Assembly (NCBI GenBank): GCA_018060545.1
Contig: JAGOVW010000004.1
Span: forward strand, 1 to 61,774
DNA: 61,774 bases
Reading direction: 5' to 3'
Origin: Minisyncoccota bacterium
Lineage (GTDB): Bacteria; Patescibacteriota; Minisyncoccia; Phycocordibacterales; UBA2100
Part shown: positions 8,591 through 59,977 of the stretch, in pieces
Layout: every line of letters begins with the position of its first letter
How positions within the stretch are numbered: position 1 is the first letter of the stretch
The notes under the pieces: model-generated
The model's database searches: none
What the model was told of the DNA's origin: nothing
Seen by the model: the letters and a program-made list of their open reading frames with translations, nothing else
Program-made: the position numbers and the translations under genes

Positions 8591-8662
8591 TTAGGTGCGC
8601 TTCTTCTTTGAAACTTTCTTTGCCTTCTTCTTAGCAGCCTTCTTAGCTTTCTTTTTTGCCAT
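8591..8662 (-). CDS. 23-aa Lys/Ala-rich basic peptide (MAKKKAKKAAKKKAKKVSKKKRT)
   Basis: Below the ORF-track cutoff. Clean ATG-TAA frame, extreme Lys bias using mixed AAA/AAG codons, terminator immediately downstream. Confidence 0.7.
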   Translation of the reverse strand: MAKKKAKKAAKKKAKKVSKKKRT

Positions 8663-8980
8663 AGTAGTTGGATTGCGTATCTAAATTTTATTTCGACCGC
8701 TCCTTGTGGGAGCTGTTACAAACATTATGGATGAATATTTGCTGCGTGATGTATTTTTTTTGTCATGTTGTGGATAAGTTAGATATGCATATATATTCAT
8801 ATATAGTTTCCGCATGCAAAGCATATCTGACATGACAGCTCAAGAGATTATTCCTCATCACAATCCAGGATGATGCCGCACATCGTCGAACACGTGACTA
8901 CGCAATCTCATCCTTATCCGACATATTGGTATCAACATAATCATTGAATGTTCGCTTCTTACTTCATCATTCCAAAAACG

Positions 8981-9011
8981 CAAAACAACCGCCTCATCAG
9001 CGGTTGTTTTG
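8981..9011. repeat. Hairpin repeat copy 1 (terminator-like)
   Basis: caaaacaaccgcctcatcagcggttgttttg; differs from the copy at 9230-9260 by one compensatory base pair. Confidence 0.8.
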
Positions 9012-9095
9012 TTTTGAGTTACACTACAAGAGCACTTCCCTGTTCTACAGTGCTGGCGCACCAAGAACAGGATGTCGCCCCCACGATGGAGGACG

Positions 9096-9111
9096 CCTGC
9101 CGGCAGGCAGG
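9096..9111. repeat. 16-bp palindromic insertion CCTGCCGGCAGGCAGG
   Basis: Present in cacgatggaggacg|ggtgcgagc (9082-9120), absent from the paralogous cacggtggaggacg|ggtgcgagc (9275-9297). Related palindrome at 59815-59837. Confidence 0.7.
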
Positions 9112-9229
9112 GGTGCGAGCACGCAAATCGCTGCGCGTTGGAAACCTCTCGGTTTCCAATACCTTCCTCCACGGGGAAACATCCAGTTTCCCCGACCCCT
9201 TTCTCCATTTGTCGCTCGCATACCGTGTG

Positions 9230-9260
9230 CAAAACGACCGCCTCATCAGCGGTCGTTTTG
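9230..9260. repeat. Hairpin repeat copy 2 (terminator-like)
   Basis: caaaacgaccgcctcatcagcggtcgttttg; would terminate a minus-strand transcript from the 9744-9771 promoter. Confidence 0.8.
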
Positions 9261-9278
9261 TTAGTTGTCGCACACACG

Positions 9279-9737
9279 GTGGAGGACGGGTGCGAGCTCC
9301 AAATGAAAATCTTATTGTGAGTGCCGCCGCCCTCCACCCTGCGGACGACACGTACAAACTGTAGCATGCTAATCACTTCGAACCCGGGTACGCGTGTGCA
9401 TTGCATTATTCCCTACCAACCTCGTAGAGTGAGCTCCCGCAGAAGCCTCTGCAGCTCCGCCCTTTTCGCGTTTCTGTACTTCAAAACTCTGCTACCGCAG
9501 AGTGAAGTGAGTACGCAAACCCACGAGTCCTGCTGCGCAGTGCACGTGAGCACGGCTCGCTGTTCTCCACACGTACGAGCAAAGCTCGCGTGTGGAGCCT
9601 CTGCAGCTCCGCCCTTTTCGCGTTTCTGTACTTCAAAACTCTGCTACCGCAGAGTGAAGGTACGGAAACGCGAAAACCCGCCGAGACGGGTGTTCACGTA
9701 GATTTTCTTGGAGACGCCACATTGCAATGGCACCCAC
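9279..9737 (-). ncRNA. Candidate structured non-coding RNA of unidentified family
   Basis: Bounded by a strong promoter and a terminator; no credible ORF. Nested end-to-end stems: 9730-9735/9288-9293, 9708-9713/9297-9302, 9700-9707/9305-9312. Many internal hairpins. Confidence 0.45.
9444..9659. repeat. 64-bp perfect direct repeat (9444-9507 and 9596-9659) around an 88-bp hairpin-rich spacer
   Basis: agcctctgcagctccgcccttttcgcgtttctgtacttcaaaactctgctaccgcagagtgaag occurs twice with a 152-bp period. Confidence 0.9.
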
Positions 9738-9743
9738 ACAGAA

Positions 9744-9771
9744 AGTATAGCTCTCGCTATTTTTGCGTCAA
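9744..9771 (-). promoter_or_regulatory. sigma70-type promoter TTGACG-N16-TATACT
   Basis: Minus strand reads ttgacg caaaaatagcgagagc tatact, pointing into the non-coding 9.0-9.74 kb region. Confidence 0.65.
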
Positions 9772-9791
9772 GCTCAATAGCGCCCTCTTCC

Positions 9792-11987
9792 CTATTGCCC
9801 CAGCTTTGCAGTACCATTCTTCACCTCTTGAATGAGCGCCTGCGCTTGCTGTGCCACTGCTGGAATATCTATGGCGATCTGCTCAAGTGTTTCAATGGCT
9901 TTTGCTTTGTTTCCTGCTGCAAAATACGACGCGGCAACAGAGAGACGAGCCTGTACGTCCTGTGGATTAGCCTTGGCCTTGCTCTCCCACAGTGCCCCCA
10001 CAGCCGTGTAATTCTTGCGTGCTGCGTACGCGGCGATCACACGCTGGTCTGCAACCTCTGCCGTACCCATAAGTGGTGCCAACAGTTCTTCCGCCATCTT
10101 TTCGTTACCTGATTGAATGAGTGCCGCCGCGTACACCATGCGTGCATCGAGATACTTTGGCTCTAGTTCATATGCCTCCTTAAGATAATTCAGTGCCTCA
10201 TCGGTCTTTCCACGCGCATTTGCATTCATCGCCAACTGGAGGATAATCGCCTGCTTCTTAGGAGAGAGTGCACGAGCCTGCTCGAGTGCCGCCTTAGATT
10301 TGTCGTGCTGTCCATATGACGCGTAGAGAAGGCCCAAGAAAAGTGGGAATCGCGCATCAAGTGGTGCTGCGGCAATCTGTGTCTGCATCTCTTTTTCAGC
10401 CAACTCAAACAACTTTCCTTTCGCTTCAGGTGCAAGGTTCGTGTTCCCTGCAGCGCGCGCAGCAATCTGCACCAGCTGTTCACGCGCCTCCTGTGTGCCT
10501 ACGGAACCGTACTCGACTGCCTTTGCAAAGGCAGCGATGCTGGCATCAGGTGACCCCTGCTGCTGGAGAGCCGCAATAAGTGCACGGTTCTGCGTGAGCG
10601 GAGCTGCGTTTACGCCCCACGCAGTGCCCCACAACACCAGCACCGCCACGCCCGCTGCTGCAGGAAGAAACTTCCATGGCAACGCTTTTTCAAACAATGG
10701 CTGCGCATTACGGGCATCTGCTACGCGATAGGCAATGAACCCGAGGGTGAAGATAAAGAACATGTAGCTCGTGATGTTGTCGAACACGAAGATGTTGTTG
10801 AATGTGTACGCAGCCAAAAGGCCCGTGAGCATACTGCGCTCTGCAATCGAGAACGCGCCACTCATCCACACACCCCACAGAGCAGCTAAGAAAATACTTA
10901 CGTAGGCAAGGAAGCCGAGGATACCTCCAGCAATCAACCAATCGAATACAATGTTGTGCACTCGATCAAACCACGGTTCTTGGCCGTACATTTTTGGATC
11001 ATAGTACTTGTTGAACACCACGTTGTAACCTTCCTGACCCCACCCCAAAAGCGGCCGCTCCTTCACACCCTGCAGGGCCATCTGGTAGTTCATAAAGCGC
11101 GATGCTACCGTCCCATCTGAAAGAGAAATATCAGCCAAGCGCTTGAGTGGCTCTACCGATTGCACTAGTGCGGTATTTTTTGCCATAAAGAACCCTCCGA
11201 CCATGAGCGCGATAACAGCGATCACACCGGCACTTGCGCGCCATGCATTGCGCGAGTCACGAGCAAGCAATACCAGAAGAATTGCTGAGAGAAGTGCGCC
11301 ACCCAAAAGCCCCAAGATGGCACCACGAGTTGCTGTAAAGAACAGTATGGTTGTCTGGAGCACCATAATGGATCCGTACATAAGCCCTGTTCCCCACTTT
11401 GCAGCACCTTCGCGCCATGCCTTTTCCCACATCATGGCTGTAAAGAACACATGGAAGAGCATGTACACCGCGAGGTAGGTGGCATTACCGAATGTTGCAT
11501 CCAAACGCACACCACCCTGATTGATGGTGATAAAGCCTGCAAGCTGGAACACCCCATAGAGCCCTGCCAAAACAGACACACCGATTGATGTGTGAAACAA
11601 ACGACGCCAGAGCGTCTCTGTGGTAAGTACACTGTAAGAAACGGCGAGAAACACGAGGAGGTGTGCGAGCGTTACCCACCCTTCCATGCGTTCGTAGTTG
11701 CTCCAGAAACTCTTGAATGTGTTTACTCCAAAAGCATCAGCAATACCAATAATGAGCACAAACAGCGCGAACGCGCCCAAGAGAAGGCTCTTGCGCGGGC
11801 GATACAGTGGCGAAATCACCGCAAGTGCGAGCCATGCTGCGGCGATGATTTCCACAATGATGCGGAACGAAAAGTTCTTCCCGGTAATGAACGGAAAGAA
11901 GAGTGTATTGGCTACAAACAGAGGAATAAATGGGATCGCGAAAATGCCGGCTAATACAACTCCGCGGAGGATTTTTTCTAATGTCAT
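9792..11987 (-). CDS. O-antigen ligase/Wzy_C family membrane protein with C-terminal TPR-like region (possible O-oligosaccharyltransferase)
   Basis: Many TM segments; R...ATFGNATY, T.TRGAILG, RPLLGWGQEGY, DRVHNIVFDWL motifs; TPR-like helical C-terminus. Start MTLEKIL (TACAAT-7nt-ATG). Confidence 0.8.
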   Translation of the reverse strand: MTLEKILRGVVLAGIFAIPFIPLFVANTLFFPFITGKNFSFRIIVEIIAAAWLALAVISPLYRPRKSLLLGAFALFVLIIGIADAFGVNTFKSFWSNYERMEGWVTLAHLLVFLAVSYSVLTTETLWRRLFHTSIGVSVLAGLYGVFQLAGFITINQGGVRLDATFGNATYLAVYMLFHVFFTAMMWEKAWREGAAKWGTGLMYGSIMVLQTTILFFTATRGAILGLLGGALLSAILLVLLARDSRNAWRASAGVIAVIALMVGGFFMAKNTALVQSVEPLKRLADISLSDGTVASRFMNYQMALQGVKERPLLGWGQEGYNVVFNKYYDPKMYGQEPWFDRVHNIVFDWLIAGGILGFLAYVSIFLAALWGVWMSGAFSIAERSMLTGLLAAYTFNNIFVFDNITSYMFFIFTLGFIAYRVADARNAQPLFEKALPWKFLPAAAGVAVLVLWGTAWGVNAAPLTQNRALIAALQQQGSPDASIAAFAKAVEYGSVGTQEAREQLVQIAARAAGNTNLAPEAKGKLFELAEKEMQTQIAAAPLDARFPLFLGLLYASYGQHDKSKAALEQARALSPKKQAIILQLAMNANARGKTDEALNYLKEAYELEPKYLDARMVYAAALIQSGNEKMAEELLAPLMGTAEVADQRVIAAYAARKNYTAVGALWESKAKANPQDVQARLSVAASYFAAGNKAKAIETLEQIAIDIPAVAQQAQALIQEVKNGTAKLGQ

Positions 11988-54174: not shown

Positions 54175-54365
54175 GTGGGCACGAGAGGACCTGGTCACGG
54201 ATAATTTTGCTCTGCAAAATTTCCGCGACCCCGCCTCGCCAACAAGCACTCGTTGCGCTCGTCTTGTATACCGGCTCCGGCTTTCAAGTCTTCCGTATCC
54301 CTACAATACAATAGTCGCTGCATGCTGTCGCATGCAGCTCTCTTGTTTTGTGGGCACGAGAGGAC
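54174..54365. mobile_element. Miniature tRNA-associated insert bounded by a 17-bp direct repeat of the tRNA-Leu 3' end
   Basis: tgtgggcacgagaggac at 54174-54190 and 54349-54365; internal hairpins at 54193-54230 and 54317-54338; no integrase. Confidence 0.6.
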
Positions 54366-59664: not shown

Positions 59665-59771
59665 GTCATCACGCAACCTTATTCTTATCGATCGGATAGT
59701 GGCCAGTTTACTTTGCAAGCATTCGCAGACATATTCAATTCTACCGCATCTATTCTGAGGGTTTCTATCTC

Positions 59772-59977
59772 TGAACGCACCAGGGATGTCTCCCACAAGT
59801 TTTCTTGTCGCCGACCCTGCCTGCCGGCCAGGCAGGGCGTCAAGAAACTCGCGTGCCGCTCCTCGCTCCCCACGCTGCTGCGTGTGGGCCCACTGCGGAC
59901 CTTCGACCCCCAGTCGCAACAGTCTCCCAGACTGTTGCTTGCAAGCCTAAAACTTCGTTTTTGTGCACGCACTAGGG
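59772..59977. mobile_element. Miniature tRNA-associated insert ending in a degenerate copy of the tRNA-Ile 3' end
   Basis: tgaacgcaccaggg (59772-59785) vs tgcacgcactaggg (59964-59977), 12/14 identical. Internal hairpin ~59798-59850 is capped by palindrome ccctgcctgccggccaggcaggg. Confidence 0.45.

Follow-up and report, generated by a model that had tools for sequence, protein, structure and literature searches.

A Paceibacteria pair of mutually complementary small RNA genes, joined by a genus-specific folded spacer

Which RNA, or which RNAs, are encoded at positions 9230-9771 on the minus strand of contig JAGOVW010000004.1 (61,774 nt, the 61.8-kb stretch of DNA analyzed as a whole and referred to here as the window), where about 470 nt without a credible open reading frame (ORF) separate a promoter from a terminator, between the genes for an O-antigen-ligase/TPR protein and for SecA? 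An initial annotation, made from the sequence alone, had proposed a single divergent housekeeping RNA, or a new motif, of ~460 nt, closed by nested end-to-end stems and expanded by an internal duplication. The present analysis supports a real, conserved and structured non-coding RNA locus, and resolves the flagged unit as a composite: two mutually complementary small RNA genes, here called module A (5') and module B (3'), are joined by a genus-specific folded spacer, and the supposed ends of one molecule belong to two separate, widely conserved small RNA genes, both of which are preceded by a promoter of their own in most Paceibacteria. The reading favored here, with a probability of about 0.7, is that the stretch carries the Paceibacteria A/B pair of small RNAs, with its two members physically linked in a manner peculiar to this genus.

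The comparison draws on related loci (designated by L-numbers, such as L001, L073 or L082), all of which were collected around secA; the SecA relatives are all Patescibacteria of the class Paceibacteria (Kaiser-, Taylor-, Zambryski- and Campbellbacteria), and the closest representative genome in SecA is that of L073, with 92% identity. The promoter and the terminator that the initial annotation had placed at either end are indeed present, and the promoter is kept, with the same placement and a conserved sequence, ahead of the orthologous RNA in ~25 other loci. Protein coding was rejected, in agreement with that annotation, as the only long frame across the region (182 aa, 8858-9406) has no Pfam match and is disrupted by a 16-nt indel in comparison with L073. 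With a folding energy of -237.6 kcal/mol, the region 9745-9225 is far more stable than its dinucleotide shuffles (z = -8.7), which bears out the prediction of a structured RNA, and both homologs and covariation, by which that prediction was to be judged, exist in relatives.

Module B is a rod-shaped hairpin RNA. In blastn searches, many secA-upstream regions match the flagged RNA, and they do so only over its final ~60 nt. A covariance model (CM) of module B built here and not contained in Rfam (R1) identified one copy per locus in 37 of the 84 Paceibacteria sources searched, and gave exactly one match in the window (9258-9356, minus strand; 80.5 bits, E = 2.5e-25), with 18.7 bits for the antisense. 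The consensus of 24 aligned instances consists of a 13-bp closing stem, an invariant inner core (GCACUCAYA ... UUGGAGCUNGC) and a semi-conserved, A/U-rich apical loop, and the window has the covarying stem, the core and the loop; among relatives the apical loop is variable, with 14-20 nt, and the internal loops comprise 1-3 nt. In the real alignment 97.1% of the stem cells are paired, against 86.1% in column shuffles (0/500 attain the real value) and at most 52% when the partners are slid, and 11 of the 13 stem pairs show changes on both sides. The tail GUCCUCCACC, initially taken as tRNA-like, is the 3' strand of this stem (P1) and is replaced together with its partner elsewhere, for example by CCGCCGGUC. 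The invariant internal-loop core is likely a protein- or RNA-binding site. In most loci a -10 hexamer (TATACT or TATAAT) lies 38-42 nt upstream of the B core; the corresponding element of the window (Table 1) has the family position and a hexamer weaker than the family consensus, and B is probably still transcribed also from this weaker promoter of its own in the window genome.

Upstream of B, ~25 loci share the arrangement TTGACA/TTGCAA-N17-(TG)CTATACT-N6-7, followed by an RNA that starts with GUGRGUGC. This module A, for which an alignment (A5) was built here and which is likewise not in Rfam, has a length of ~66-75 nt among loci and is composed, in relatives, of a short hairpin, a single-stranded stretch of the CCAAA...GAAUGUCU type, a G+C hairpin and usually a U-run; conservation extends to the promoter, the GUGRGUGC at the 5' end, the seed and the 3' hairpin. 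The window carries a near-consensus promoter, GUGRGUGC, the 5' hairpin and a seed complementary to the loop of its cognate B, whereas the G+C hairpin with a U-run before B is not found: a 6-bp hairpin is followed by UUUUCGCG, and this hairpin was not called in the terminator scan of the window. The A of L073 has the same degenerate terminator, and the U-run after A is also absent in L086, L023, L026 and L030.

The relation between the two modules shows in their pairing. Across 27 loci the mean energy of the cognate duplex between A seed and B loop is -14.4 kcal/mol, against -10.8 kcal/mol once the partners are permuted; the cognate energy is not matched in any of 20,000 such permutations, nor in any of 20,000 when the test is repeated with 21 distinct-loop representatives. 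The duplex of the window (-14.8 kcal/mol) is the second best of 19 A partners on this loop, after that of the near-identical L073 only. Seeds and loops correspond to each other as GAAAAUCU and AGAUUUUC in the window, GAAAGUUU and AAACUUUC in L085, AAAUGUGU and ACACAUUU in L026, AAAUAAAGUCG and UGACUUUAUUU in L002, GUUGUCA and UGACAAC in L057, and CGAACGAAUGUCU and AGAUAUUCGUUUG in the L078 group. In the consensus fold of the window and L073, the seed of A (9707-9699) and the loop of B are both unpaired, which would leave them free to form a long-range loop-strand helix. L001 has A on the strand opposite to B, with divergent transcription, so that the pairing must act between two molecules. These data show that the A seed and the B apical loop co-evolve and that their pairing works in trans. 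No other match to the seed of A was found within the window; RNAcofold of A with B is a method that cannot model loop-strand pairing.

The invariant 5' octamer of A, GUGRGUGC, is also the exact complement of the invariant core strand of B, GCACUCAC, and GTGRGTGCC occurs in the window at these two sites only (9729-9737, minus strand, and 9317-9325, plus strand). Pairing between the octamer and GCACUCAC was considered and rejected, since the variants found in L006, L012, L055 and L022 show no covariation and the topology would be awkward.

The pairing also clarifies the end-to-end stems of the initial annotation, of which four were nested. Two of them, ctccaa/ttggag and gaaaatct/agattttc, have evolutionary support and represent the pairing of the A seed with the B loop; the other two, gggtgc/gcaccc and gtga/tcac, draw on bases already paired in the covarying or invariant local hairpin B (inner core and closing stem), are not conserved in relatives and lack support. 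In purely thermodynamic terms, the duplex energy of the 5' 50 nt with the 3' 60 nt is unremarkable, being matched by 84 of 1000 shuffles, and the inner ctgcgg/ccgcag stem falls outside the conserved fold.

The idea of one housekeeping RNA (tmRNA, RNase P, SRP or 6S), expanded by duplication, has in its favor the very high conservation, the strong fold and the duplication of the 3' end of B downstream, as with tRNA genes. In addition, the RNase P RNAs of the candidate phyla radiation (CPR) are divergent and fall below model thresholds, yet they are detectable when thresholds are lowered (PMC8172020). Unlike these, the flagged locus is undetectable by a lowered-threshold RNase P search. With Rfam 15 at the gathering score, the whole window yields two tRNAs only, and at E <= 10 the 1 kb of 8900-9900 yields only terminator-like noise far below threshold; the same kind of noise is all that was obtained from 14 related loci at the gathering score and from the natural insert-free homolog L082 at E <= 10. 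The absence of a known family, as initially stated, is thus observed with and without the insert. For transfer-messenger RNA (tmRNA; RF00023) there is no CM match at the gathering score or at E <= 10, ARAGORN reports in the window the two tRNAs only, the 'CCACC' tail forms the 3' side of the covarying stem P1, and neither a T-arm nor a tag is present. For RNase P RNA (RF00010/RF00011) no match appears at E <= 10 in 8900-9900 or in L082, and CR-I/CR-V are lacking; for the RNA of the signal recognition particle (SRP; RF00169/RF01854) no CM match was obtained, and the variable apical loop is not a GNRA-capped domain IV; for 6S RNA (RF00013) there is again no CM match, and the short internal loops of B leave no large central bubble. 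Furthermore, most relatives have the two ends as separate genes, which in L001 occupy opposite strands, and the middle is absent outside one genus. These searches of the window and its relatives support none of the four candidates, and a single divergent housekeeping RNA is considered highly improbable. Literature searches found no description of the module A or module B RNAs.

The middle part of the stretch differs strongly among relatives. In most loci A ends in a real terminator and the A-to-B distance is ~85-150 nt; between A and B there are ~45 nt in L082 (SecA 77% identical to that of the window) and ~110 nt in L085 (74%), and L086 (74%) has an unrelated ~290-nt insert with a terminator at its end, before B. 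The spacer of ~320 nt is confined to the window and to L073 and L083, both with 92% identity in SecA, and no terminator stands between it and B. It is organized around a copy of the A tail in reverse complement (GUACAGAAACGCGAAAA) and a second, partial one in forward orientation, and is tandemly duplicated; the 152-bp internal duplication that had been noted initially is real, with two fully identical 64-nt copies, 152 nt apart, in a repeat that extends to 77 nt at 95% identity.

Between the window and L073, four-fold degenerate sites of secA are 37.5% identical, whereas identity reaches 98.5% in module A, 98.1% in B with its promoter, 100% in the terminator of B, 83% in the trailing unit 2 described below and 72% in the spacer. 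That A and B remain ~98% identical while synonymous sites are saturated marks both as RNA genes on which selection is very strong. A ~105-nt block of the spacer hardly differs from that of L073, and two spacer hairpins show 8 compensatory double changes; judged by this comparison, the spacer is conserved and structured and not neutral filler.

These observations have to be weighed against the possibility that A and B are two independent small RNAs in this genus too, and that the 320-nt middle is a by-product of 3'-end duplication or a separate trailer element of A. The promoter retained by B and the hairpin with UUUU retained by A would fit such independence, as would the origin of the spacer from forward and reverse-complement copies of the A tail, the unrelated inserts that other lineages carry at the same place (that of L086 ending in a real terminator before B), and the variable copy number of unit 2 among close relatives, in which assemblies break at this point. 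By-product DNA, however, would hardly be expected to keep 72% identity and a nearly invariant block where synonymous sites are saturated, nor to change its stems by compensatory pairs, and no terminator separates the spacer from B. Two independent RNAs are therefore regarded as unlikely here, although as the most credible of the alternatives.

Under the favored reading of a linked pair, B is a stable, rod-like hairpin of ~90 nt with an exposed apical loop of 14-20 nt, and A an RNA of ~66-75 nt from a strong promoter, whose seed, as co-evolution shows, pairs with the whole apical loop of B over 13-20 bp. In this genus most of the U-tract has been lost from the terminator of A, and a structured spacer of ~320 nt has grown between the genes from forward and reverse-complement copies of the A tail that were tandemly duplicated. 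Because no terminator precedes B, transcription would probably read through from the promoter of A to the terminator of B and give an A-spacer-B RNA of ~500 nt; such a read-through RNA of ~460-500 nt is plausible from the arrangement of signals. Within it the seed-loop helix would form intramolecularly and close the molecule, which would correspond to the end-to-end stems initially perceived. As a working model, A may be the dedicated antisense partner that controls or completes B; a broader function of A, in the control of numerous mRNAs, is not favored because its seed drifts freely as long as the loop of B follows.

Several points weigh against this reading. The covariation in the spacer comes from one pairwise comparison (two independent versions, the window against L073/L083) and could also reflect maintenance of palindromes at the DNA level, and a scan of Joint Genome Institute metagenomes with a conserved 20-mer of the spacer returned one unrelated high-GC coding match only. 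The 6-bp hairpin of A with its UUUU could still terminate a good share of the transcripts. What is said here of the read-through RNA, of where A and B end and of how abundant they are is prediction: the window locus was found in none of the RNA-seq runs searched, one metatranscriptome had two words in common with the L078 homolog and nothing that could be placed on it, and the DNA sequencing runs searched recovered again only a relative of the L073 type. The linkage with secA, finally, is partly a sampling effect, since the loci were gathered around this gene.

The position of the locus upstream of secA in most sampled genomes, with hairpin B ending 10-50 nt before the secA start codon in L006, L022 and L058, might suggest a cis-acting leader or attenuator that controls secA. 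In the window, however, B is followed by a terminator, unit 2, another terminator and a separate Lys-rich micro-gene that has a terminator of its own, and secA begins only ~950 nt further on; moreover, in L001, L003 and L085 the cassette has the inverse orientation with respect to secA. A secA leader was rejected on the latter ground, and its probability is the lowest of all the explanations considered.

Table 1. Positions of the elements of the A/B locus and its trailing unit in the window
Feature	Position	Strand	Remarks
Promoter of module A, TTGACG-N16-TATACT	9744..9771	-	10/12 match; start site ~9737
Module A, small RNA (~66 nt)	9672..9737	-	alignment A5, consensus fold
5' end of A, GUGGGUGCC	from 9737	-	hairpin 1 at 9736-9709
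Seed of A, CUCCAAGAAAAUCUA	9699..9713	-	complementary to the apical loop of B
3' hairpin of A, 6 bp	9691-9676	-	followed by UUUU only, a degenerate terminator
Structured spacer between A and B (~320 nt)	9367..9671	-	starts in the U-tract of A; without terminator; only in the window, L073 and L083
Repeat copy 1, hairpin module	9596..9659	-	3' arm is a reverse-complement copy of the A tail (12 nt, 1/300 shuffles)
Repeat copy 2	9444..9507	-	100% identical to copy 1 over 64 nt, 152 nt away
Promoter of B, extended -10 TGcTACAGT	9358..9366	-	at -39 relative to the core of B
Module B, rod-shaped hairpin RNA (~90 nt)	9264..9351	-	R1, 80.5 bits; covariation
Stem P1 of B	9339-9327 pairs with 9289-9278	-	covariation
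Core of B	9324-9316	-	GCACUCACA, plus UUGGAGCUCGC; alignment
Apical loop of B	9297..9316	-	AGAUUUUC at 9312-9305, UUGGAG at 9302-9297; pairs with the seed of A
Terminator after B	9230..9260	-	12-bp stem, then UUUUG; 100% identical in L073
Trailing unit 2	9014..9229	-	ends with a forward copy of the B 3' strand (GCUCGCACCC...GUCCUCCA), begins with a partial reverse-complement copy
Second terminator copy	8981..9011	-	94% identical to the first
16-nt palindromic insertion	9096..9111	.	splits the copied B strand in unit 2; absent in L073

The interval between A and B has expanded repeatedly. Other lineages have independent and unrelated expansions there, 300-600 nt in length (L023:1783-2470, L030:2180-2655 and L086:2238-2540), and some of them again contain reverse-complement copies of the A tail.

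Duplication is also seen downstream of B, whose 3' strand and terminator recur after 150-250 nt and close a second unit (9229-8981). The forward copy of B measures 10 + 9 nt in the window, where a palindrome splits it, while L073 has 30 nt of it, L086 has 20 nt and L001 has 17 nt (shuffle p about 0), and in L086 the unit begins with a perfect 13-nt reverse-complement copy of the B core strand. Unit 2 occurs in the window as well as in L073, L001 and L086 and is missing from L083; L073 has an additional partial copy. The initial annotation had described the same duplication for both tRNAs of the window. This is correct for the 3' strand and terminator of B and for the tRNA-Leu, each of which is followed by a forward copy of its last nucleotides: in the trailer of the tRNA-Leu (54175-54349, minus strand) the last 16 nt are repeated at +160 (0/300 shuffles). 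It holds only in part for the tRNA-Ile, whose trailer (59770-59962, minus strand) has a 9-nt reverse-complement copy at +53 (10/300 shuffles) and a merely partial forward copy.

No sequence homology was detected among the trailer units except for a shared palindrome of 16-19 nt. This palindrome, CCCTGCCT(G)GCCGGCAGGC, is found in near-identical form in unit 2 (9096-9111) and in the tRNA-Ile trailer (59815-59837), and looks like a tiny mobile palindrome. Contigs of close relatives (L081, L090, L092, L093 and L094) end inside the duplicated terminator or unit 2, upstream of secA, which suggests that the repeats break short-read assemblies.

Further elements accompany the locus. A perfect DnaA box, TTATCCACA, lies at 8769-8777 (minus strand), between unit 2 and a Lys-rich micro-ORF; (G)TTATCCACA followed by a T-rich run is also located downstream of B in L082, L085, L086 and the L052/L074/L079 group, and L078 has a one-base variant of the box, TTATCCCCA. 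The micro-ORF itself, with 23 codons (MAKKKAKKAAKKKAKKVSKKKRT; 8591-8662, minus strand), has its own terminator and a conserved leader consisting of a hairpin and GGUCGAAAU, and orthologous Lys-rich micro-ORFs are found in L082, L085 and L086. In L085, A, B and the micro-ORF cassette are inverted as one block.

Regarding the meaning of the locus, a tiny, gene-dense CPR genome nevertheless keeps ~1.5 kb of non-coding DNA here, and within it two strongly selected RNA genes that are unnamed in public RNA libraries. A and B constitute a clean case of two RNAs co-evolving to stay complementary across a bacterial class, and the recurrent copying of the 3' ends of stable RNAs (tRNAs and B) into trailing units shapes non-coding DNA and breaks assemblies. 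The linked form may serve as a natural experiment on whether A and B act as one particle. A bolder proposal, which appears speculative and rather doubtful at present, is that A and B each supply one half of an obligate RNA-RNA complex, an unrecognized core ribonucleoprotein RNA of Paceibacteria, possibly replacing a housekeeping RNA that CMs miss in this class. If so, this genus would have evolved a natural 'single-chain' form of it, an expansion segment tethering the two RNAs, and the Rosetta-stone logic of fused proteins would argue for a pair that functions as one particle and not as a regulator and its target.

Among known systems, the closest in layout are the dedicated base-pairing RNA pairs, such as CopA/CopT, RNAI/RNAII and Sok/hok, which exert antisense or kissing-loop control, and the pairs of a small RNA (sRNA) and its sponge. 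As in these, A is laid out like a classic sRNA, with a hairpin at its 5' end, then a single-stranded seed and a hairpin or terminator at its 3' end; its pairing target is the exposed hairpin loop of its partner, and the partners co-evolve. Unlike antisense pairs, A and B lie side by side in the same orientation, are chromosomal and are conserved across a whole CPR class; unlike CopA/CopT, RNAI/RNAII and Sok/hok, they involve no mRNA, toxin ORF or replicon, and they are cis-linked in this genus. For the trailer units, the nearest known parallel is provided by the repeats of the E. coli tyrT operon and the rtT RNA (RF00391). In both cases the units carry a copy of the last nucleotides of an RNA gene (here the 3' strand and terminator of B, and the tRNA-Leu), and copy number varies, apparently through unequal recombination; there is, however, no sequence similarity and no RF00391 match, the host gene here is a non-tRNA hairpin RNA, and the units also hold reverse-complement copies. 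B, in turn, resembles the 4.5S SRP RNA (RF00169) in being rod-like, in its size class of ~90-115 nt, in its conserved internal loops, in its single copy and in its position next to a secretion gene, although no CM match is found at E <= 10, its loop of 14-20 nt is variable, paired with another RNA and devoid of a GNRA tetraloop, and its internal loops do not fit the symmetric/asymmetric pattern. With 6S RNA (RF00013), which CMs often miss in divergent phyla, B has in common that it is a highly conserved, abundant-looking, hairpin-type RNA with a strong promoter of its own; it differs from 6S RNA in being half as long, in having no large central bubble and in giving no CM match.

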